Positions 831-22,905 are shown, counted from the first letter of the stretch. The stretch is DNA of 24,503 nucleotides from Candidatus Roizmanbacteria bacterium CG_4_10_14_0_8_um_filter_33_9 (GCA_002785065.1 PFLI01000065.1:1724-26226), one strand, 5' to 3'. A program made the numbers and translations. The notes: generated from the sequence alone by a model not told the origin.

Positions 831-852
831 CAAATATTAACATTATTTATTT

Positions 853-906
853 GTCATCCTGAATATATTTCAGGATCTAAAAGATGCTGAAACAGTTCAG
901 CATGAC
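853..906. repeat. YGTC-tagged REP-like double-hairpin element (copy 1, intergenic)
   Basis: GTCATCCTGAA-tatat-TTCAGGATCT-aaa-AGATGCTGAA-acag-TTCAGCATGAC: two 8-bp hairpins in inverted arrangement with GTCAT/ATGAC termini, flanked by T and A. Confidence 0.9.
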
Positions 907-921
907 AGTTTAATACTATTT

Positions 922-1569: not shown

Positions 1570-2646
1570 ATGGAAATAGATGTAACAAATGAAAAAAAGA
1601 AAGCAATTGATTTTATCGTAAATTCATCTTCTTTATCCGAGCTTATCAAAACAGAAACAGAACTTCTTGGACGAAATGGTCTTATTAATTCATTATTAAA
1701 ACAGCTCAAAAACATTATACCTGAAAAAAGAAAGACTGTTGGAATAAATATTAATGCATTAAAACAGGAAGTTATAACACTCATTAATCAAAAAAAACAG
1801 CTATTATCTCAAAAAATAGATGATAAAAATATCGATGTTACCATGCCCGGAACATCTATTAAAACGGGAACTCTCCATCCAATCACAATCGCTATTACAG
1901 AAATAAGTTCGATATTTTCAAAACTCGGATTTATACGAATGTCATATCCAGAAGTTGAGTGGGAGTATCTTGCATTTGACACTCTTAATATGCCAAAAAC
2001 TCATCCAGCACGCGATGACTTTGAAACGACATTTGTTAACGGAGAACCGCATCCAACATACGGAAAAATGATTTTAACTCCCCATACTTCGTCAGGTCAG
2101 ATTCGAGAAATGTGGAGACTTAAAAAACCACCTATTCGCATGATAAATATTGGAAAGTGTTATCGGCCCAATTGGGATGCGACACATACTCCAATGTTTC
2201 ATCAATTTGAAGGACTTTGTGTTGATACTGATATAAATATCACTCATTTAAAAGGTGCTCTTGATTATTTTGCAAAAGAATATTTTGGTGAAAATACACA
2301 AACTCGACTCAGACCGCATCATTTTCAGTTTACCGAACCATCCTTCGAGGTAGATATTAGTTGTACCATGTGCCAAGGAACAGGGATCCTTCGACAATCC
2401 CGTGATAGCGGGACTTCTCAGGATGACCTAAAAGTCAAATGTAAAATATGTAAATCCGGATGGCTTGAACTGGGAGGTACTGGGATGGTGCATCCAAATG
2501 TATTAATATCGGGAGGTATTGATCCTATAAAATACTCGGGATGGGCGTTTGGATTTGGAATCGAACGGGTTATTATGATGAAATACGGAGTCGATGATAT
2601 TCGAAATTATTACTCAGGGGACATGAGATTTTTAAGTCAATTTTAA
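1570..2646 (+). CDS. pheS: Phenylalanyl-tRNA synthetase alpha subunit, with a repeat-derived insertion in the CxxC...CxxC loop
   Basis: GTLHPIT, FDTLNMPKTHPARD, LTPHTSSGQIR, DATHTPMFHQFEG, RPHHFQFTEPSFEVD, GWLELGGTGMVHPNV and AFGFGIERVIM motifs. Confidence 0.98.
   Translation: MEIDVTNEKKKAIDFIVNSSSLSELIKTETELLGRNGLINSLLKQLKNIIPEKRKTVGININALKQEVITLINQKKQLLSQKIDDKNIDVTMPGTSIKTGTLHPITIAITEISSIFSKLGFIRMSYPEVEWEYLAFDTLNMPKTHPARDDFETTFVNGEPHPTYGKMILTPHTSSGQIREMWRLKKPPIRMINIGKCYRPNWDATHTPMFHQFEGLCVDTDINITHLKGALDYFAKEYFGENTQTRLRPHHFQFTEPSFEVDISCTMCQGTGILRQSRDSGTSQDDLKVKCKICKSGWLELGGTGMVHPNVLISGGIDPIKYSGWAFGFGIERVIMMKYGVDDIRNYYSGDMRFLSQF
2385..2427 (-). repeat. YGTC-tagged REP-like half element inserted in-frame in pheS (copy 2)
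   Basis: Reverse complement is GTCATCCTGAG-AAGTCCCGCTATCACGGGA-TTGTCGAAGGATC. It has the same GTCATCCTG start and GGATC end as copies 1 and 4, plus an inner hairpin TCCCG-tgatag-CGGGA (2398-2413). Codons 2383-2427 encode GILRQSRDSGTSQDD. Confidence 0.85.
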
Positions 2647-2650
2647 ATAT

Positions 2651-4624
2651 ATGAACATCAAAGTATTACATAGTTGGTTGCTTGAATATCTCGATACCAA
2701 AGCAACTCCTCCGCAAATACAGCAATATATATCTTTATGCGGACCTTCTGTTGAAAGTGTGGAAAAAATTCAAAATGATTGGTTGTATGATATTGAGATT
2801 ACCTCAAATCGCATTGATACGGTGTCAGTTGTTGGCATTGCTCGTGAAATATCAACAATTCTCAATCGATTTGAAATACCAGCATTATTTAAAAAACCTA
2901 TCCTTCTCGAACCGTCTTCACCAAATAACATTCTTCCTTTTACTATTAAAGATAACGGTAAACTCACAAAACGACTTATGGCAATTGTTATGGATAACAT
3001 TACGGTAAGTAAATCTCCCGATTTTATAACAAAACGGTTAGAAGCTGCTGGAATTCGTTCGTTGAGCAATATTGTTGATATAACCAATTACGTCATGCTT
3101 GAAATCGGTCATCCAACTCATGTGTTTGATTATGATCGAATTAAAACCAATACATTTATCTTAAGACATGCAAATAAAGGAGAAAAAATCACCACACTAG
3201 ATAAAAAAACGCATGACCTATATGAGACTGATATTATCATTGATGACGGAACAGGTCGTATTATCGATTTTCCTGGTATCATGGGTACTGCAAATAGTGT
3301 AGTGACTGACAAAACAAAACGCATTGTCTTTTTCATAGAATCAAATAATCCTCAAGCAATACGTAGATCATCAATGAAACATGGAATTCGAACCATGGCA
3401 GCCTCAATTAATGAAAAAAATCCTCATCCTGCGCTTGTTCAAGATGCACTTTTTCGCGGAATAGAATTATACCAAACATACGCAAAAGCAGAAATTGCAA
3501 GTCCTGTTTATGATCTCTATCCAAATCCTCTAACTTCTAAAAAAATAAGCATTGATATTCCATTTATCCATAAAAAAATAGGTGTACCAATGGATAAAAA
3601 ACAGATTATTTCAATTCTTACTGATTTACAGTTTGAGGTAAAAACTAAACAAGACAATCTTGAAATAACCATACCAACTTTCCGCTATTTTGATATGTAT
3701 GAAAAAGAAGATATTATTGAAGAGATCGCACGAATTTATGGATATCATAATATTCCAGGACAACTACCACCTTTAGCATATATCCAACAACCTAAAGATA
3801 TTGAACAAATCTTTAATTATCAAAATGTTATTAAAACATATTTAAAGCATCAAACATGGTATGAAACAATGAATTATTCCGCATATTCCAAATTGTTACT
3901 ATCTGCGTTTGATTTAAAAGAAACGGATCATCTCCATATTACTAATACAATATCAGAGGATATTAAATATCTCCGCGTATCGATTATTCCGTCACTGCTT
4001 AAAAATATCAAAGAGAACGGGGGATTCTCAACCGATTTAAAATTGTTTGAAATTGCTAAAACATATAAACCTCAAAAAGCAAGCCTTCCTGAAGAACGGT
4101 TTAAATTATCTTTAGTAACAAAAGGCTCTTTTTTGAGCTTAAAGGGATTAATTGAAGCACTGCTAAAAGAACTACATGTTGAAAAATACTCATTTACCCT
4201 GTCTTCACATCCGTTTTTTTCCTCAACTGTTCAAGCACATCTTTTAATTGAAAACGTAGTTGTTGGTGTGTTAGGTAAAGTCAAAAACTCAATTATGGAA
4301 CACATGCAGCTGACTGATTCAGTTTTTGCTGCGGAGTTTGATTTTGAAAAACTGATTGAAAAGGCACGCCTTATGCCTATTTATAAACCATACAATCCCT
4401 ATGCAGCAATCCAGCTTGATTTAACAACGCCTCTCAATCAATCATATGCAAAAATCGTCCAGATTGCGAAAGAATCCGCTCCTCATATAACTCAAATCAC
4501 CCTTAAAGATACATATAAGGATAACGTAACATTACATCTCATATTTTCCTCACCCAATAGAAACTATACAGAAAAAGAAGCACTTATTGAACTTGAAAAG
4601 ATAAAAAATAATATTTTAGTATAG
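2651..4624 (+). CDS. pheT: Phenylalanyl-tRNA synthetase beta subunit, short form lacking the B2/OB tRNA-binding insert
   Basis: IEITSNRIDTVSVVGIARE, RLEAAGIRSLSNIVDITNYVMLEIGHPTHVFD, IPTFRYFD..EKEDIIEEIARIYGY and YLRVSIIPSLL motifs; follows pheS. Confidence 0.96.
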   Translation: MNIKVLHSWLLEYLDTKATPPQIQQYISLCGPSVESVEKIQNDWLYDIEITSNRIDTVSVVGIAREISTILNRFEIPALFKKPILLEPSSPNNILPFTIKDNGKLTKRLMAIVMDNITVSKSPDFITKRLEAAGIRSLSNIVDITNYVMLEIGHPTHVFDYDRIKTNTFILRHANKGEKITTLDKKTHDLYETDIIIDDGTGRIIDFPGIMGTANSVVTDKTKRIVFFIESNNPQAIRRSSMKHGIRTMAASINEKNPHPALVQDALFRGIELYQTYAKAEIASPVYDLYPNPLTSKKISIDIPFIHKKIGVPMDKKQIISILTDLQFEVKTKQDNLEITIPTFRYFDMYEKEDIIEEIARIYGYHNIPGQLPPLAYIQQPKDIEQIFNYQNVIKTYLKHQTWYETMNYSAYSKLLLSAFDLKETDHLHITNTISEDIKYLRVSIIPSLLKNIKENGGFSTDLKLFEIAKTYKPQKASLPEERFKLSLVTKGSFLSLKGLIEALLKELHVEKYSFTLSSHPFFSSTVQAHLLIENVVVGVLGKVKNSIMEHMQLTDSVFAAEFDFEKLIEKARLMPIYKPYNPYAAIQLDLTTPLNQSYAKIVQIAKESAPHITQITLKDTYKDNVTLHLIFSSPNRNYTEKEALIELEKIKNNILV

Positions 4625-4645: not shown

Positions 4646-4790
4646 GATACTCCCCGACGCAGAGCATCGGGGCATCTATATGTGTCATTCCGGCGAAAGC
4701 CGGAATCTATATAATTCTGGATCCCGATTTTCATCGGGATGACAAACAATTTTCGCAGCAGAGCTGCGAGGAATTAAACCACTAAGGTTA
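4646..4790. mobile_element. Putative non-autonomous palindrome-bounded element (IS200/IS605- or PATE-like) with two GC-AGA-GC hairpins
   Basis: Hairpin A CCCCGA-C-GC-AGA-GC-A-TCGGGG (4652-4672) and hairpin B TCGCAGC-AGA-GCTGCGA (4753-4769) are in the same orientation about 100 nt apart. B is followed by GGAATTAAACCACTAAGGTTAAA. The boundaries and the family call are inference. Confidence 0.5.
4684..4743. repeat. YGTC-tagged REP-like double-hairpin element (copy 3, intergenic, nested between the GC-AGA-GC hairpins)
   Basis: GTC-ATTCCGGC-GAAA-GCCGGAAT-CT...GG-ATCCCGAT-tttc-ATCGGGAT-GAC; TGTCAT/ATGACA termini as in copy 1. Confidence 0.9.
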
Positions 4791-4791
4791 A

Positions 4792-5364
4792 ATTATTAAT
4801 AGTTTTATCTACTATCGTTCATGCAGATCAAAACCGAGATATTCTTTTTTTAAAAAGATGGACAAAAACCTGAGAGACGCAAAATTAAATGAAATACATT
4901 TTCGATCTACTTTCATTGTAGATATCGTAGCATTTATACTCATGCCGAATCATTATCATTTTTTACTGAAACAACTAAAACAAAATGGAATTATTTCTTT
5001 TATGTCAAATAGTATAAATTCAATTACAAGGTTTTATAATGTGAAAAATGAGAGAAAAGGTCCTGTATTTTTACCTCAGTTTCGCTTTAAACGAATTTTA
5101 TCGATAGAACAGCTTGTTTATACATCAAAATACATACATACAAATGCTTATACTGCCAACATAATTAATACAAAAGAAGAAATCATTAAATATCCATATT
5201 CATCAATGAGTTGCTATATAGCTCAAAATATTTTACAAATCAATTTAAAACCTGTTTTGAGTTATTTTAATCATAATACAAATAAATATATTGATTTTAT
5301 TCAGAAAAATACCCAGAATAATACAGAAAGAGAGATTAATAGTCATATCAATCAATGGAGTTAA
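4792..5364 (+). pseudogene. REP-associated tyrosine transposase (RAYT, Y1 HUH family), 5'-truncated
   Basis: HUH motif FILMPNHYHFLLKQ, then N..NERKGPVF...F, (Y1) KYIHTN and YPYSS. The frame extends upstream of the ATG at 4858 to a TAA at 4789-4791 (IINSFIYYRSCRSKPRYSFFKK), and the usual N-terminal YYHvxNRG segment is absent. Confidence 0.75.
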
Positions 5365-15262: not shown

Positions 15263-15796
15263 CTAATAACTACGAAGTTTAAATGTAAAATGATATGGTA
15301 AGGTAAAAATTGAACCGGAATCGGTTATATCAAATGAAGTTATTATAATTGGAGGACTAAAACTACTCGTTCTATAACAAGTAAATCCTTCATTTTGAAT
15401 TTTTACTCGTGTATTTGTTAAATAAGAAATAGCTCCTACACTGCTTTGTGATGCAATTTTATGTTCTAAATCAACATAATAAGAAAAAGTATTAAGTTCT
15501 GTATCAATAACATTAATTCGAGGAGCGGGAGTAGGTATCGGAGTAGTTATTGGATTCGTAAGTATAGGACAAACATCGTTAGTATATGTTACATCAACAA
15601 CACGAATACCTTTTTGTTGAATGTTAAATTTCATATTCTCCAAAGCGTAGTCGCCTTGTTGTTTTATATCTTTAAGTGCATAAATTCGTGTTTCTTGTTG
15701 AAGTATTGTAAAAATTATTGCAAATAGTGAGGGAAGAGTAAAAGAAATAACGGCCAGAACTACTAATATTTCAATAAATGTAAATCCTTTTTTCAT
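15263..15796 (-). CDS. Minor pilin, PulJ/PilW-like (start revised to MKKG|FTFIE)
   Basis: Class III signal G|FTFIEILVV plus hydrophobic helix; Pro/Thr-rich segment TNPITTPIPTPAP; 2 Cys. Confidence 0.85.
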   Translation of the reverse strand: MKKGFTFIEILVVLAVISFTLPSLFAIIFTILQQETRIYALKDIKQQGDYALENMKFNIQQKGIRVVDVTYTNDVCPILTNPITTPIPTPAPRINVIDTELNTFSYYVDLEHKIASQSSVGAISYLTNTRVKIQNEGFTCYRTSSFSPPIIITSFDITDSGSIFTLPYHFTFKLRSY

Positions 15797-16841: not shown

Positions 16842-17279
16842 TTAAAGTTGACCATATGGCCCCATACAATAATTACAATACGCATCAGTACTATGACACG
16901 ATGGAATTGGAGAACAAACAGTGAAGCTTCCGCTTTCTAGGTGAACTCCAAAAGTATATGTATTACCATCTGAAAAGTAATAGTATAATTCACTTTGCTT
17001 AGGATCAGTAGGTATCTTGGACATATATGTGTTTCCTGATGCATCGACTAATGCTGCTCCAAATGGTAAACCCGGAGGAGAAACAGGGGATGTAGGGTAT
17101 AGGTCATTACTGCTCTTGTACATTTCCAAGGCGGAACGAATTAATTCAACATCGGCTTTTCTCCGAGCATCACGAGATTGCTTTAAAAACTGAGTATATG
17201 AAACAATACCGGCAACGGCAAGAAACCCAATAATGGTTGTTACAACTAATATTTCAACCAATGTAAAAGATTTTTGCAT
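16842..17279 (-). CDS. Type IV pilin, GspG-like (start revised to MQKS|FTLVE)
   Basis: S|FTLVEILVV signal, SRDARRKADVELIRSALEMY...LYP, YMSKIPTDP; 4 Cys. Confidence 0.88.
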   Translation of the reverse strand: MQKSFTLVEILVVTTIIGFLAVAGIVSYTQFLKQSRDARRKADVELIRSALEMYKSSNDLYPTSPVSPPGLPFGAALVDASGNTYMSKIPTDPKQSELYYYFSDGNTYTFGVHLESGSFTVCSPIPSCHSTDAYCNYCMGPYGQL

Positions 17280-17707: not shown

Positions 17708-18169
17708 TTAAGGTTGGAGAACTTTATAACATTTGTTTGACGAACATGTATATCCTGTCACCGTATTAAAATCACCTGGACATGATTCAACGTCTATATC
17801 CCCAACATTATCTAAACATGCATACATAGTATATGTACTATCATCATCGTTTGTTGAATAATAATATTTTCTTGCTGATGCAGCTGGACAGTTAGAGCTT
17901 GGATCTTTAGGAACTTTATTCATATAAACAATCGTGCCTGAAGACCAAGTATTGCATGGAAGTGCAGGAATAATAGATGGATATAATTGAGGAGTCTGAT
18001 TCTGTTTATATAATTCAAGAGCATTTTGTAACTGTCTTAAGTCTGACTTCCTCTGAACATCTCTTGTTCGCTGCCGCGATTCAATATAGTTGGGTAAAAG
18101 AAGTGTTGTTAATATGGCAATTATTGCAATTACAACCAATATCTCAACCAACGAGAATGCTTTTTTCAT
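17708..18169 (-). CDS. Type IV pilin, GspG-like
   Basis: A|FSLVEILVV signal, RDVQRKSDLRQLQNALELY...YP, YMNKVPKDP; 6 Cys. Confidence 0.88.
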   Translation of the reverse strand: MKKAFSLVEILVVIAIIAILTTLLLPNYIESRQRTRDVQRKSDLRQLQNALELYKQNQTPQLYPSIIPALPCNTWSSGTIVYMNKVPKDPSSNCPAASARKYYYSTNDDDSTYTMYACLDNVGDIDVESCPGDFNTVTGYTCSSNKCYKVLQP

Positions 18170-18172
18170 AAT

Positions 18173-18901
18173 CTATATATTTATAGTAACCTTCTTCTCA
18201 ATAAAAAGCAAGAGATTGTCCAATGCAAGTGCAACATTGAGATTATTGTTTTCTATTTTATGTTTAATAAAAAAAAGATATTTTAAAATTTCGGGGTAAA
18301 TGTCATCCTGGGGAATCCCGCTCTGTGGGATGACTCCAGGATCCGTAGATTCTGGACAATCAGAAGTGGTGCCAGAATGACGTAACTTGTTTGCAAAATA
18401 ATAAATAAATTCATTAATATATTTCAATACATCTTCTTTTTTAATGTTCGCTAATTGATCGTGACATAATGGATTCCTCTTTTTATTTTCAATAAGAAAG
18501 TCCAAAAGAGGGGGTATTTCATTTACATGATTTGCAACTGTATTAGTGATTTTAACGGAAACTACTTTCGCTCTGGAACGAATTGTCGGAAGCAAAGAAT
18601 ACAGATTAGAAGTTATAAGAACAATATGATTTAAGTCTTTTTTTTCTTCCAAAACTTTAAGTAGCATATTTTGAACTTCCCAAGAAGTACTCTCAAACCT
18701 ATAAAAAATAAATAACCGATCACTTGGAAAACGTATCGTAAATAATTTCAGAATGCTTTTTACTTCTTCTATGGTTAGCTCAGTTTTTTCAGGTATAAAT
18801 CTGTAAATATGGGTTGAATTAATAAGGTGTTTACGAATAAATGCATTAAGATAGTTTTCAGTGTCTTCTTTAGTTTGAGAACAAAGAATAATAGGAAGCA
18901 T
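18173..18901 (-). CDS. holB: DNA polymerase III delta-prime-like (HolB-like) clamp-loader subunit, short form, with a 27-aa repeat-derived insertion
   Basis: LTIEEVK, QNMLLKVLEE (cf. NALLKTLEEP), IVLITSN...LLPTIRSR (SRC-like Arg finger), and C-terminal NNLNVALALDNLL. No P-loop is visible. Confidence 0.75.
   Translation of the reverse strand: MLPIILCSQTKEDTENYLNAFIRKHLINSTHIYRFIPEKTELTIEEVKSILKLFTIRFPSDRLFIFYRFESTSWEVQNMLLKVLEEKKDLNHIVLITSNLYSLLPTIRSRAKVVSVKITNTVANHVNEIPPLLDFLIENKKRNPLCHDQLANIKKEDVLKYINEFIYYFANKLRHSGTTSDCPESTDPGVIPQSGIPQDDIYPEILKYLFFIKHKIENNNLNVALALDNLLLFIEKKVTINI
18302..18381. repeat. YGTC-tagged REP-like double-hairpin element inserted in-frame in the holB-like gene (copy 4)
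   Basis: GTC-ATCCTGG-gga-ATCCCG-ctctg-TGGGAT-gact-CCAGGAT-Ccgta-G-ATTCTGG-acaatcagaagtggtg-CCAGAAT-GAC. Bases 18302-18382 are exactly 27 codons on the minus strand (RHSGTTSDCPESTDPGVIPQSGIPQDD). Confidence 0.9.
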
Positions 18902-18942: not shown

Positions 18943-20652
18943 ATGAATATTCCACCAAAACAATTCATCGAAACTCTGGTACAAAAGCAGCTTATTACTC
19001 AAGAAGAAGGTGATAAATACGAAATGGAGTCATTGAACAAAAATCTCCCTATTTATGATTATCTGCTCGTATATGGAAAGCTTAAAAAAAGCGATATACT
19101 CAAATCTCAAGCTGAATTACTTCATGTCCCATTTGTCGATATTAATACTATTGCTGTTAGCCCTGAAGCATTAGCTTTTATTTCTGAATCCATTGCACGA
19201 AAATATATTATATTACCTTACTCATATGATTCAAAAACCGATTCAATTTATGTAGCAACTGCTCATCCGCTTGATTTTTCGTTAAATGATTTTTTAGAAA
19301 AAAAAACAAATAAAAGAATTATTTTATCGCTTGGAAATAAAGAAGATATTATTAAATCTATTAATATGGTTTATATCCATGGACTATCTCCAGAGGTTAA
19401 AGAAGCTCTTGCGGAGGTATCGGGATATAATACAGATAATACAAGCGAACAAATTACCACTATCGTAAAAGAGGCTCCTATAGCAAAAATAGTAAACACT
19501 ATCCTTGAATTTGCCATGAAAGGACGTGCTTCAGATATTCATATCGAACCTCAAGAAGATAAAACAAGAATTCGTTATCGAATCGACGGAGTTTTACAGG
19601 AAAAACTAACCTTACCAAGAAGTATTCATGATTCCCTTGCATCAAGAATAAAAATTCTTTCCCAAATGAAAATTGACGAACGAAGAATCCCGCAAGATGG
19701 TCGCTTTAGTTTTAAAGTTGGAAATGAAGAAGTTGACCTTCGCGTATCATCTCTTCCAACAGTACACGGTGAAAAAATAGTTATGAGAATTCTTAAAAAA
19801 ACAGGTGGTCTTCCTATGCTTCATGAACTTGGACTTCGTGGAACACAATATAAAGACTTAGAAGAAGCAATCCTCAAACCATATGGCATTATTCTTGTTA
19901 CCGGACCCACTGGTTCAGGAAAAACTACCACACTGTATTCTATTTTAACAAAATTAAATAAACCATCGGTTAATATCGTTACCCTCGAAGATCCGGTTGA
20001 ATATGAAATTGTGGGTATTAATCAAGTACAAATTAATCCCCAGGCAGGTTTAACATTTGGAGCAGGTCTCCGTTCATTTCTTCGACAAGACCCAAATATT
20101 ATTCTTGTTGGAGAAATCCGGGATAAAGAAACTGCTCAACTTGCAATCCAAGCCGCTCTTACTGGACATCTTGTTTTTTCAACCCTCCACACCAACGATG
20201 CCGCTACTGCGATACCACGGCTTATTGATCTGGGAGCAGAACCCTTTTTAATTTCATCTGTCTTAAATGCATCAGTTGCTCAACGTATTTCACGTACTGT
20301 CTGCCCACATTGTAAAGAACAATATGAACCTGTCGAAACAATTAAAGAAAATATTAAATCTATACTTGGACCACTTCTTCCTGCTAAATATCAAACATCA
20401 CCAATTATGTTATCTCGAGGAAAAGGTTGTGTGGAATGTAATTTTTCAGGATATTTAGGAAGAATCGCCATATTTGAAGTCTTAAAAATAACTCCAATAA
20501 TTAATAAAATGATTCTACAGCAGGCATCAGCGCGTGAAATTGAAGCACAAGCAAAGAAGGATAGTCTTATTATTATGAAACAAGACGGGTATTTAAAAGC
20601 TCTCGAAGGTATAACCTCTCTAGAAGAAGTTTTACGAGTTGCAGAAGTATGA
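18943..20652 (+). CDS. pilB: Type IV pilus assembly ATPase PilB/GspE family
   Basis: ASDIHIEP, RIRYRIDG, RIPQDGRF, GPTGSGKTTTL, TLEDPVEY, LRQDPNIILVGEIRD, TGHLVFSTLHTN, and Zn motif CPHC...CVEC. Confidence 0.97.
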   Translation: MNIPPKQFIETLVQKQLITQEEGDKYEMESLNKNLPIYDYLLVYGKLKKSDILKSQAELLHVPFVDINTIAVSPEALAFISESIARKYIILPYSYDSKTDSIYVATAHPLDFSLNDFLEKKTNKRIILSLGNKEDIIKSINMVYIHGLSPEVKEALAEVSGYNTDNTSEQITTIVKEAPIAKIVNTILEFAMKGRASDIHIEPQEDKTRIRYRIDGVLQEKLTLPRSIHDSLASRIKILSQMKIDERRIPQDGRFSFKVGNEEVDLRVSSLPTVHGEKIVMRILKKTGGLPMLHELGLRGTQYKDLEEAILKPYGIILVTGPTGSGKTTTLYSILTKLNKPSVNIVTLEDPVEYEIVGINQVQINPQAGLTFGAGLRSFLRQDPNIILVGEIRDKETAQLAIQAALTGHLVFSTLHTNDAATAIPRLIDLGAEPFLISSVLNASVAQRISRTVCPHCKEQYEPVETIKENIKSILGPLLPAKYQTSPIMLSRGKGCVECNFSGYLGRIAIFEVLKITPIINKMILQQASAREIEAQAKKDSLIIMKQDGYLKALEGITSLEEVLRVAEV

Positions 20653-21707
20653 GAAACACTATTCAACAATTAATGCAAGTGGCAATTGATAAAAATGCAT
20701 CAGATCTTCATATTGTTGCACCTTATTTTGCAACACTGCGAATTAAAAATAAACTTCTTTTTTTACGCAACTTTGGAATTATCCAACCTGAAACTTCTGA
20801 GGAAATGCTTTTATCATTACTTTCTCCTGAACAAAAAACATATTTTTTAGAAAATAAGGAAATTGATATCGGATATGACTTTGCAGGTACAAGATTTAGA
20901 ATAAATATTTATATAAATAGAAAATCTATTGGAGCAGCGTTTCGACTAATTCCCAATAGGATTAAAAATTTTGCAGAATTAAATCTTCCGAAAATTTTTC
21001 AAACATTTTCCAATTATAATCAAGGACTTATTCTTTTTACTGGTCCAACCGGGGAGGGAAAATCAAGTTCTCTTGCTGCAATTATTAATGATATTAACCT
21101 TCGTCATTCCAAACATATTATTACTATCGAAGATCCAGTTGAATACGTATATCCAATTGAAAAATCAATTATTTCTCAAAGAGAAATTCATCAAGATACA
21201 CTTTCATTTAATTCTGCACTTAAATCCGTTTTACGAGAAGATCCTGACATTGTACTTGTAGGGGAGATGAGGGATTATGAGACTGTTCAATCTACATTGC
21301 AAATAGCCGAAACTGGCCATCTTGTTTTTTCAACCCTTCATACGGGATCCACAAAAGATTCGATTGACCGAATAATTGACATGTTTCCATCTCACCAACA
21401 AAATCAAACAAGAAGCACACTTTCGCAAGAGCTTATTGCAATTATCGCTCAACGGCTACTTCCTTCATCAACCAATGACGATCTTGTCCCCGCAGTTGAA
21501 ATACTAATGAATACTTCATCAATTGCATCTGTTATTCGTGATGGTAAAACATTTATGATCGATACCATTCTTGAAACAGGCGAAGAAAAAGGTATGGTAC
21601 TTTTTGAACGATATCTATATAAATTATATCAAAACGGTCTTATTTCAAGAGAAACTGCCCATAGTCATGCAATCCGTCCTAATATTATTTCGAAATTAAT
21701 TAAATAG
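20649..21707 (+). CDS. pilT: Type IV pilus retraction ATPase PilT
   Basis: ASDLHI, RFRINIY, GPTGEGKS, TIEDPVE, LREDPDIVLVGEMRD, ETGHLVFSTLHT, and an AIRNLIRE-like SIASVIRD motif. Confidence 0.95.
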   Translation: MRNTIQQLMQVAIDKNASDLHIVAPYFATLRIKNKLLFLRNFGIIQPETSEEMLLSLLSPEQKTYFLENKEIDIGYDFAGTRFRINIYINRKSIGAAFRLIPNRIKNFAELNLPKIFQTFSNYNQGLILFTGPTGEGKSSSLAAIINDINLRHSKHIITIEDPVEYVYPIEKSIISQREIHQDTLSFNSALKSVLREDPDIVLVGEMRDYETVQSTLQIAETGHLVFSTLHTGSTKDSIDRIIDMFPSHQQNQTRSTLSQELIAIIAQRLLPSSTNDDLVPAVEILMNTSSIASVIRDGKTFMIDTILETGEEKGMVLFERYLYKLYQNGLISRETAHSHAIRPNIISKLIK

Positions 21708-21708
21708 T

Positions 21709-22905
21709 ATGTATTGGTTTAAAGCACTTAAAAATGGTGTCGTTATCAATCAAAAAATTGAATCAAACAGTGAACAAGATGTTGTTGATTATTTAAAACG
21801 AAACGATTACGTTCCAATAAAAGTCCAGGAAATTAAGCCGCTTCTTCCAGAACTAATGACAATGTTTGATCGTATCGGGTTCGGAGATATTGTTGATTTT
21901 ACAAGACAATTGGCAATTATGTTAAATGCAGGTCTAACTCTCATTGATAGTTTTTCCATTCTACAAAAACAAATAACAAAACCAAGTTTGTTATTAATGA
22001 TAAAAAATATTTATAAAGATGTTTTAGGGGGAAGCACCTTTTCAAAAGCTCTTCAAAAATACCCAACTCATTTTTCCAATCTTTATATTTCACTTGTAAA
22101 GTCAGGAGAAGCATCTGGTAAAATAAGTGAGATTTTGCTTCGACTGGCAGACAATTTGGAAAAGCAAAGGGAGTTTCAATCAAAAATTAAAGGCGCGTTA
22201 GTTTATCCGGTAATTGTTGTTATCGGTATGATAGGCGTTATGTTTGTCATGGTTACTTTTGTAGTTCCAAAACTGCTTAATCTTTATAAAGACTTTAATG
22301 TAACTCTTCCTATGTCAACTCAAATACTCATTTTTATATCTAATATTTCAACCAAATTCTGGCCTTTTATCTTTCTTGGAATTTTTGCAAGTTTTATTCT
22401 TATAAAAAGATATCTTAATACCAAAATAGGGAAACAGTCATTTGATGAATTTACTTTAAAACTTCCCGTTTTCGGAAAAATTGTATCTATTTCTGCTTTA
22501 GTTGATACTACTCGCACTTTATCAATACTTATTGGTTCGGGTGTTTCCATTCTAGAAAGCCTTAATATTATTATTGATACGAGTGGAAACATGGTGTATC
22601 AAAATGCGTTCACTCATATTTATAAACAGGTCGAGAAAGGATTTGCTTTAGGAACTGCTCTTGAAAACGAAAAACTATTTCCTCCTATATTAATACAAAT
22701 GACGACAGTAGGAGAGCAAACCGGTCATTTAGATGATACCTTATCCCGCATTTCCAAATATTTTGAAATGGAGTCTGAAATGGCTGTAAAGACAATGACA
22801 ACCCTAATCGAACCACTTATTCTTGTTTTTTTAGGCTTAGGAGTAGGCTTTCTTGTCCTTGCGGTAATAACACCTATTTATAATTTAACTTCATCGATAA
22901 AATGA
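21709..22905 (+). CDS. pilC: Type IV pilus platform protein PilC/GspF family
   Basis: FTRQLAIMLNAGL, GEASGKISEIL.RLA, GALVYP, GEQTGHLDDTL and LIEPL; three TM segments. Confidence 0.97.
   Translation: MYWFKALKNGVVINQKIESNSEQDVVDYLKRNDYVPIKVQEIKPLLPELMTMFDRIGFGDIVDFTRQLAIMLNAGLTLIDSFSILQKQITKPSLLLMIKNIYKDVLGGSTFSKALQKYPTHFSNLYISLVKSGEASGKISEILLRLADNLEKQREFQSKIKGALVYPVIVVIGMIGVMFVMVTFVVPKLLNLYKDFNVTLPMSTQILIFISNISTKFWPFIFLGIFASFILIKRYLNTKIGKQSFDEFTLKLPVFGKIVSISALVDTTRTLSILIGSGVSILESLNIIIDTSGNMVYQNAFTHIYKQVEKGFALGTALENEKLFPPILIQMTTVGEQTGHLDDTLSRISKYFEMESEMAVKTMTTLIEPLILVFLGLGVGFLVLAVITPIYNLTSSIK

Follow-up and report, generated by a model that had tools for sequence, protein, structure and literature searches.

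Candidatus Roizmanbacteria belongs to the CPR/Microgenomates group, within the ultra-small CPR bacteria. The bacterium analysed here comes from groundwater, and the annotated names of its nearest protein relatives also point to this group. The genome analysed here, Candidatus Roizmanbacteria bacterium CG_4_10_14_0_8_um_filter_33_9 (GCA_002785065.1), has a GC content of 33% and comprises 1.07 Mb in 195 contigs. The stretch of DNA under analysis, hereafter the window, has a length of 24,503 nucleotides (PFLI01000065.1:1724-26226) and is AT-rich. In its first part the genes infC, rpmI and rplT are followed by pheS and then by pheT. The pheS product is the alpha subunit of phenylalanyl-tRNA synthetase, an essential enzyme. 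It has the tRNA-synt_2d core and the N-terminal coiled coil of a bacterial PheS, its fold matches PheRS and the pheT gene is adjacent. The features of the gene and of its four-cysteine loop are the following:

1570-2646, plus strand: pheS, phenylalanyl-tRNA synthetase alpha subunit of 358 aa, carrying the insert (ORF; Pfam tRNA-synt_2d at 3e-81 and Phe_tRNA-synt_N; AF2 fold)
2362-2373, plus strand: first CxxC (C265-C268) of the four-Cys knuckle, both residues invariant in 53 homologues
2383-2427, plus strand: 45-nt stretch encoding residues 272-286 (GILRQSRDSGTSQDD), net gain 36 nt, boundaries uncertain by about 9 nt
2428-2436, plus strand: CTAAAAGTC (L-K-V), directly 3' of the insert and not present in canonical loops
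2440-2451, plus strand: second CxxC (C291-C294), invariant in 53 homologues
2651-4624: pheT, adjoining pheS downstream (ORF call)

Further along the window, repeated pilin-like N-termini are found on the minus strand at 15746-15796, 17229-17279, 18119-18169 and 22323-22355, and two paralogous ATPase-like stretches are found at 19973-21343; the direct repeats D1-D3 and D12 correspond to these pilin-like and ATPase-like repeats. Together these genes look like a type IV pilus cluster, unrelated to the PheS insert.

The lengthened cysteine loop of PheS

All four cysteines are invariant across the 53 aligned homologues and make up a putative zinc knuckle, which is also found in the PheS structures 2RHQ (S. 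haemolyticus) and 4P71 (P. aeruginosa). In these the knuckle sits at the same place just before GW[LI]E and has the same CxxC...CxxC arrangement, within the compact CxxCxGxGCxxC loop that a previous inspection of the DNA by eye (the sequence-only reading) had named for many bacterial PheS proteins. The spacing of the Cys pairs is 4 residues in both structures and normally 10 in Roizmanbacteria, compared to 22 in the window, where the loop is composed of CTMC, QGTGILRQSRDSGTSQDDLKVK and CKIC; the recomputed ORF agrees in coordinates and sequence with the distance of 22 residues given in that reading. When the window PheS is aligned with HMMER to 2RHQ and 4P71, residues 273-290 stay unaligned. 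The AF2 model is that of a normal PheS, with a mean pLDDT of 82.8 and bacterial PheRS as the best structural matches, and structure prediction of the loop shows confidence dropping to 66-73 at residues 271-290.

Counted from EPSF to GWLEL, the segment measures 34 aa in most relatives versus 46 aa in the window, and compared to members of the same family or order the window PheS is longer by a net 12 aa (36 nt). The event had been described as a 15-residue in-frame insertion into an essential synthetase. It is indeed in frame, while its net size has to be reduced to 12 residues, because G272 corresponds to the Gly conserved in CxGxG and the 'IL' after it is present in the uninserted protein P0004. 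The GC content of 2383-2427 is 56%, as against 33% for the genome. Motif search could read the loop in 24 of 29 loci from the same family or order; in all but one of the 24 the Cys-pair spacer is within five residues of the ten-residue norm, and in most it is exactly ten. The canonical ten-residue loop is likewise found in 74 of the 120 best database homologues. In the closest orthologues a gap is present at these residues, as had been anticipated:

P0002: 81% identity to the window PheS, five extra loop residues
P0003: 78% identity to the window PheS, one extra loop residue
P0004: 77% identity to the window PheS, no extra residue (GTGILGNMKC)

These three proteins and the window PheS form a supported clade (SH-aLRT 96) in a tree calculated without the loop columns. 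In the P0002 gene (L031:6001-7056) the DNA of the five extra residues forms a small ACGGG...CCCGT hairpin, possibly left over from a further palindromic insert. In three separate clades of PheS the triplets CTAAAAGTC (L-K-V) accompany the insert type of the window, and they are possibly part of the unit that was inserted; a GACCT..AGGTC palindrome is seen in relatives.

An assembly artefact was rejected on the Logan contigs of four runs, from four differently coded samples, which are identical over the 45 nt, with 0 differences across the insert and no gapped variant; this check at the level of contigs would miss a rare insert-free variant, and one of the four runs is possibly the source sample. 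An intron, an intein and translational bypass were also considered and rejected, as no features of those systems were found. Since the 45 nt are in frame, stop-free and devoid of intron or intein features, plain translation is the simplest reading.

The CGTC-tagged repeat family and its copy in pheS

The half-unit of the repeat family is composed of GATTCTGG-A, a variable GC stem-loop and CCAGAATGACG, and measures 43-44 nt with two nested stems. Full elements of 70-130 nt are composed of two half-units head to head, with CGTCATTCTGG and CCAGAATGACG as their ends. Most copies end in CGTC/GACG and a minority in TGTC. Pairing is found in 85% of the cells of the proposed stems, compared to 30-50% when the partners are slid, and in the inner stem both sides have changed in five of six pairs, a covariation score reached by none of 500 shuffles. 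The covariance model R1 was built from 21 half-units, with the PheS copy left out. In this genome it gives 58 half-unit hits in about thirty paired regions on many contigs; nearly all copies are paired and solo half-units are rare. No consistent target-site duplication was detected in 32 flank pairs (0-2 nt, chance level), so the family has the inverted ends of DDE-type MITEs but lacks their target-site duplication. Paired hairpins, a tetranucleotide tag and no target duplication fit elements of the REP type.

Run unfiltered on the window, R1 finds exactly seven half-units, which are three pairs and the stretch in pheS:

852-907: full element in the infC-rpmI spacer, halves 852-877 (minus) and 883-907 (plus)
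2385-2428, plus strand: decayed single half-unit (REP-like hairpin), in frame in pheS, matched by R1 over the full model length at 11.6 bits
4683-4744: full element, TGTC-tagged, of the CCGGAATGACA type, downstream of pheT, halves 4683-4707 (minus) and 4720-4744 (plus)
18301-18382: full element in frame in a DNA polymerase III delta'-like gene, halves 18301-18343 and 18348-18382 (R1 50.1 and 28.7 bits)

A survey of 40 relatives with R1 showed that the family is patchy, with 0 hits in most of them. In addition to the 58 hits in the genome studied (G000), 33 were found in G009, 30 in G013, 20 in G011 and 11 in G037, while the 99% complete genome G001, of the same genus, has 0. The infC-rpmI spacer carries an element of the same family here and in three related contigs (L031:5165-5240, L034:1562-1616 and L036:9362-9387), and this conserved position could reflect old inheritance or a role in the operon as a terminator or leader structure. 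Elements of the family also adjoin pheS in relatives, downstream on the P0079 contig (L064:1188-1253) and upstream on the P0002 contig (L031:5899-5941); the pheS neighbourhood is therefore rich in these repeats.

The pheS stretch was recognised by several methods. The R1 match on 2385-2428, taken alone, is weak, with an E value of 0.18 for the window (0.44 for the genome); it ranks directly after the six obvious half-units, and the best background match in the window reaches 8.6 bits versus 11.6 for the pheS copy. With an HMM the copy scores 11.1 bits versus 8.1 for the best match on the reversed genome. An exact 14-mer, GGATCCTTCGACAA, is common to the insert and five element copies, with a chance expectation far below 1. 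The top local alignment of the insert is with a unit on contig C132, and the local-alignment score was reached by none of 500 shuffles and by two of 500 GC-rich genomic 44-mers (p about 0.002-0.004). The outer stem pairs 2386-2390 with 2420-2424 and the inner stem 2398-2402 with 2409-2413; the hairpin fold has an energy of -18.2 kcal/mol (z -2.5 as RNA, -2.0 as DNA). The copy looks mosaic, being made of two module types which are both found in one unit on contig C110. Its decay is evident from the 11.6 bits as compared to 50-65 for intact units, and from the stem, where three of 13 pairs are broken and ten are kept. The copy ends in GACC, one base off the family tag GACG, as would be expected of a decayed copy under coding constraint.

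Less sensitive searches were negative. A repeat search within the window, allowing up to three mismatches, returned the pheS site itself only, as simple window matching fails because the stems of the family are too variable. The insert alone, compared to the genome with nhmmer and blastn, gave short exact words and no significant full-length match, and profile methods are needed. The statistics, each modest individually, are jointly convincing because the position of the match coincides exactly with the residues which the alignment marks as extra. An origin of these residues by slippage or by an ordinary indel, with accidental likeness to the repeat, would be in line with the varying loop length of many homologues and with a model score of just 11-12 bits. 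We regard it as very improbable in view of the full-length match lying exactly on the gap, the 14-mer common to five elements, the near absence of shuffled or GC-rich controls reaching the score, the presence of a GC-rich hairpin in an AT-rich gene and the unmistakable in-frame copies in five other genes. The earlier proposal that a half-element of a repeat family encodes the stretch is thus borne out by the covariance model, the HMM, the shared 14-mer and the permutation test. As judged from sequence comparison, the pheS stretch is derived from a half-unit of the CGTC-tagged repeat.

The five other genes with an in-frame element are the following, the first four being at loci L039-L042:

C173:2428-2496: LeuRS (leuS), element at aa 817-838, in the anticodon-binding domain
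C138:6375-6470: DHFR (folA), element at aa 79-109, Pfam match split in two
C2:1000-1079: prepilin peptidase (A24), element at aa 91-116, between its two domains
C96:10190-10268: PMT_2-type glycosyltransferase, element at aa 139-164
18173-18901 of the window, minus strand: DNA polymerase III delta'-like (holB-like) ORF, element at aa 174-200, Pfam DNA_pol3_delta2, open frame

The element in the last of these, with 81-82 nt and two hairpins, is the top-scoring copy in the window (50.1 bits). The block of 22 residues in LeuRS is absent in 19 relatives, including a genome of the same genus. At exactly this site the leuS of G003 (L068) carries a different insert of about 18 residues, which suggests that, besides the PheS loop, this position of LeuRS may be hit recurrently. 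Of the three frames at the right end of the unit one is closed by a stop (CCA-GAA-TGA), and all intragenic copies are read in the two stop-free frames, as QND/QDD or as RMT, which is what survivorship would produce.

A candidate mobiliser is encoded downstream of pheT:

4858-5364, plus strand: RAYT-like/IS200-like Y1 (HUH) transposase homologue, 168 aa (NCBIfam and Pfam, below cut-offs)

REP-type elements are moved as single-stranded DNA by HUH/Y1 enzymes. The ORF matches NCBIfam REP_Tyr_transpos with an E value of 2.7e-7 and 30.5 bits, the cut-off being 80, and Pfam Y1_Tnp with an E value of 0.018; a phmmer search against PDB gave no match. The TGTC-tagged element is located 114 nt upstream of the ORF and no unit is found downstream. 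On either side of this element lies another small GC hairpin (region 4646-4790). A second RAYT-like copy with 45% identity is present on contig C113, and a search of 41 genomes gave homologues in 30, at one to nine copies each. No CGTC-type units were found near the C113 copy or near the RAYT-like genes in the loci of 11 relatives, and RAYT-like genes and elements do not vary together in number across genomes. That this gene may mobilise the CGTC repeats is a lead from the adjacency in the window. In agreement with the negative results, no dedicated transposase for CGTC REPs was found by Di Nocera et al. (PMC3733652).

Expansion of the PheS loop among relatives

An expanded loop is present in 46 of the 120 best homologues, a distribution which requires at least 18 changes on the tree and by which the loop evidently tolerates lengthening. 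The sequence-only reading had ascribed this tolerance to a surface-exposed position, which the loop may have; what shows it here is the comparison of homologues, together with the drop in AF2 confidence. At least four different palindromic sequences are found among the inserts. R1 recognises a complete double hairpin of the CGTC type in the P0079 loop (E values 3e-4 and 1e-3), strong, unrelated hairpins are present in the loops of P0009 (z -3.3) and P0057 (z -7.2), and that of G025 has a different 15-residue insert with a weak predicted fold (z -1.7). In exact-pattern searches of their own genomes the PheS inserts of G025 and G013 each matched themselves alone. P0005 and the clade of P0048, P0080, P0104 and P0116 have the hairpin type of the window (ATCCTTCGAC...CTCAGGATGAC, followed by CTAAAGGTC-AAA-TGT), located at the identical codon. 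An AU test rejected the grouping of the window and these insert-bearing sequences as one clade (delta lnL 211, p 1e-44).

The same hairpin type and L-K-V-K in two distant clades imply that the history may be older or more complex than one insertion. The sequence-only reading had called the insertion recent, a view which is not borne out, given the heavy decay of the copy and the fact that two other PheS clades have its hairpin type at this codon. Repeated insertion, an old insertion with many losses and exchange of the loop as a cassette are to be considered, and the data do not settle between them.

If the insert had been acquired by an early Roizmanbacteria ancestor, inherited vertically and trimmed or lost many times, the window would be a survivor and its nearest relatives would represent deletions. 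The shared hairpin type and position just described would then be explained, as would the decay of the window copy, the five hairpin-forming extra residues kept in P0002 and the 'GIL' kept in P0004. We consider this rather unlikely: the ten-residue loop of the 74 homologues is also that of nearly all family and order relatives, so a single origin needs very many exact losses; the insert-bearing sequences are not one clade by the AU test; and the repeat family is patchy, with no copy in the same-genus genome G001.

The loop may alternatively pass among co-occurring Roizmanbacteria by homologous recombination in its flanks (GGAACAGG upstream, AAATGTAAA..TGTAAATCCGGATGG downstream), which are nearly identical in DNA across all genes compared. 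The QDD-LKVK type is polyphyletic and the third codon positions of CTA-AAG-GTC are conserved between clades, as such exchange would have it. Against it, the nucleotide identity of the window loop with those of P0005, P0080 and P0104 (0.73, 0.57 and 0.62) does not clearly exceed that over the whole gene (0.67, 0.63 and 0.61), and we rate this route as improbable.

Conservation of [S/A]-Q/R-D-D-L-K/T-V-K in three PheS clades could also indicate that the inserted peptide has been co-opted, for example that the charged ...SQDDLKVK tail modulates the Cys knuckle, tRNA binding or the contact with PheT. The conservation may however reflect the terminal sequence of the element, CAGGATGAC; other lineages have quite different peptides or none at this place and the AF2 confidence is low, which leaves co-option with little likelihood.

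More tentatively, the spacer of the PheS knuckle could serve hairpin DNA as a landing pad in Roizmanbacteria, and perhaps in further CPR bacteria, a possibility which is linked to the mobilisation of CGTC-type REPs by the RAYT-like Y1 gene. The turnover of several unrelated palindromic families at this site, by gain, nesting, trimming and possibly exchange, may be far quicker than the evolution of the gene, and the DNA of the site or an earlier resident hairpin may attract insertions beyond what tolerance alone would allow.

Origin of the insert and relation to known elements

The best explanation, which we hold to be probable, is that one hairpin unit from a REP-like repeat with the CGTC tag joined the CxxC spacer of PheS and was kept as a selfish passenger, not as a functional domain. 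It would have arrived as one unit, or be the leftover of a two-unit element, by a Y1/RAYT-type enzyme acting in trans or by a hairpin-mediated error of replication or recombination. The end of the unit is read as CAG-GAT-GAC (Q-D-D), which is one of the two stop-free frames. As unit length and frame keep the reading frame open, the copy would be translated as a net lengthening of the loop by 12 residues, and it would persist because the spacer tolerates changes in length. After arrival the sequence would have decayed, with most of the stem pairing kept. That the insert is translated and neutral, as well as the timing of these steps, we infer from the DNA. The passenger behaviour would resemble that of the Rickettsia palindromic elements and of intragenic REPs.

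CGTC-tagged REPs, including intragenic ones, have been described by Di Nocera, De Gregorio & Rocco 2013 (PMC3733652) as GC-rich stem-loops of 20-40 bp with CGTC at one end, mostly in inverted pairs and in tens of copies. Their intragenic forms are single units or dimers encoding about 20-30 aa, different REPs occur at about one site of recB in Xanthomonas, and the Rickettsia elements RPE-4 and RPE-6 are CGTC REPs (PMC3733652). The family described here matches them by anatomy, in the short GC-rich palindromic unit, the many dispersed inverted dimers and the intragenic copies. It differs in its host, Roizmanbacteria (CPR) being outside that survey, and in its slightly longer units of about 43 nt, while the pheS copy differs in being a decayed solo unit with the tag GACC.

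Rickettsia palindromic elements (RPEs; Ogata et al. 2000) are, according to two later accounts (PMC10969869, PMC3733652), palindromes in frame in essential housekeeping genes which are translated as extra loops and leave the protein intact. The likeness is one of behaviour, as the insertions here are also in frame and frame-keeping (PheS, LeuRS, DHFR, prepilin peptidase, glycosyltransferase and DNA polymerase III delta'). Host phylum and sequence family differ, and RPE-1 is about 150 bp long, as compared to units of 43 nt and full elements of 70-130 nt here. A further difference is the recurrent arrival of several families, in different lineages, at a single loop of a single gene.

With the REPIN/RAYT system and GTAG REPs (Bertels & Rainey 2011, PMC3116915; Nunvar et al. 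2010, PMC2817692) the family shares the inverted hairpin doublet, the absence of target-site duplication and a RAYT-like Y1 gene beside one element. It differs in the tag, which is GTAG in that system and CGTC/TGTC here, and in the RAYT-like gene having an element on one side alone; REPINs are moreover extragenic by definition. We found no literature tying Patescibacteria or Roizmanbacteria to REPs or MITEs.

In-frame insertion of a palindrome is a known kind of event, and the most interesting feature of the locus is the recurrence of such hits on one PheS loop. The finding extends the translated selfish palindromes of the Rickettsia type to ultra-small CPR bacteria, where, in a genome of about 1 Mb, repeats are located inside two aminoacyl-tRNA synthetases, DHFR and a subunit of the replication clamp loader. 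Inserts of this kind inflate and distort protein alignments of the marker genes used for CPR phylogeny, and 'lineage-specific loops' which derive from them are not to be read as adaptations. The PheS loop represents a natural experiment on which protein sites bear random peptides and on whether hairpin elements choose their targets.
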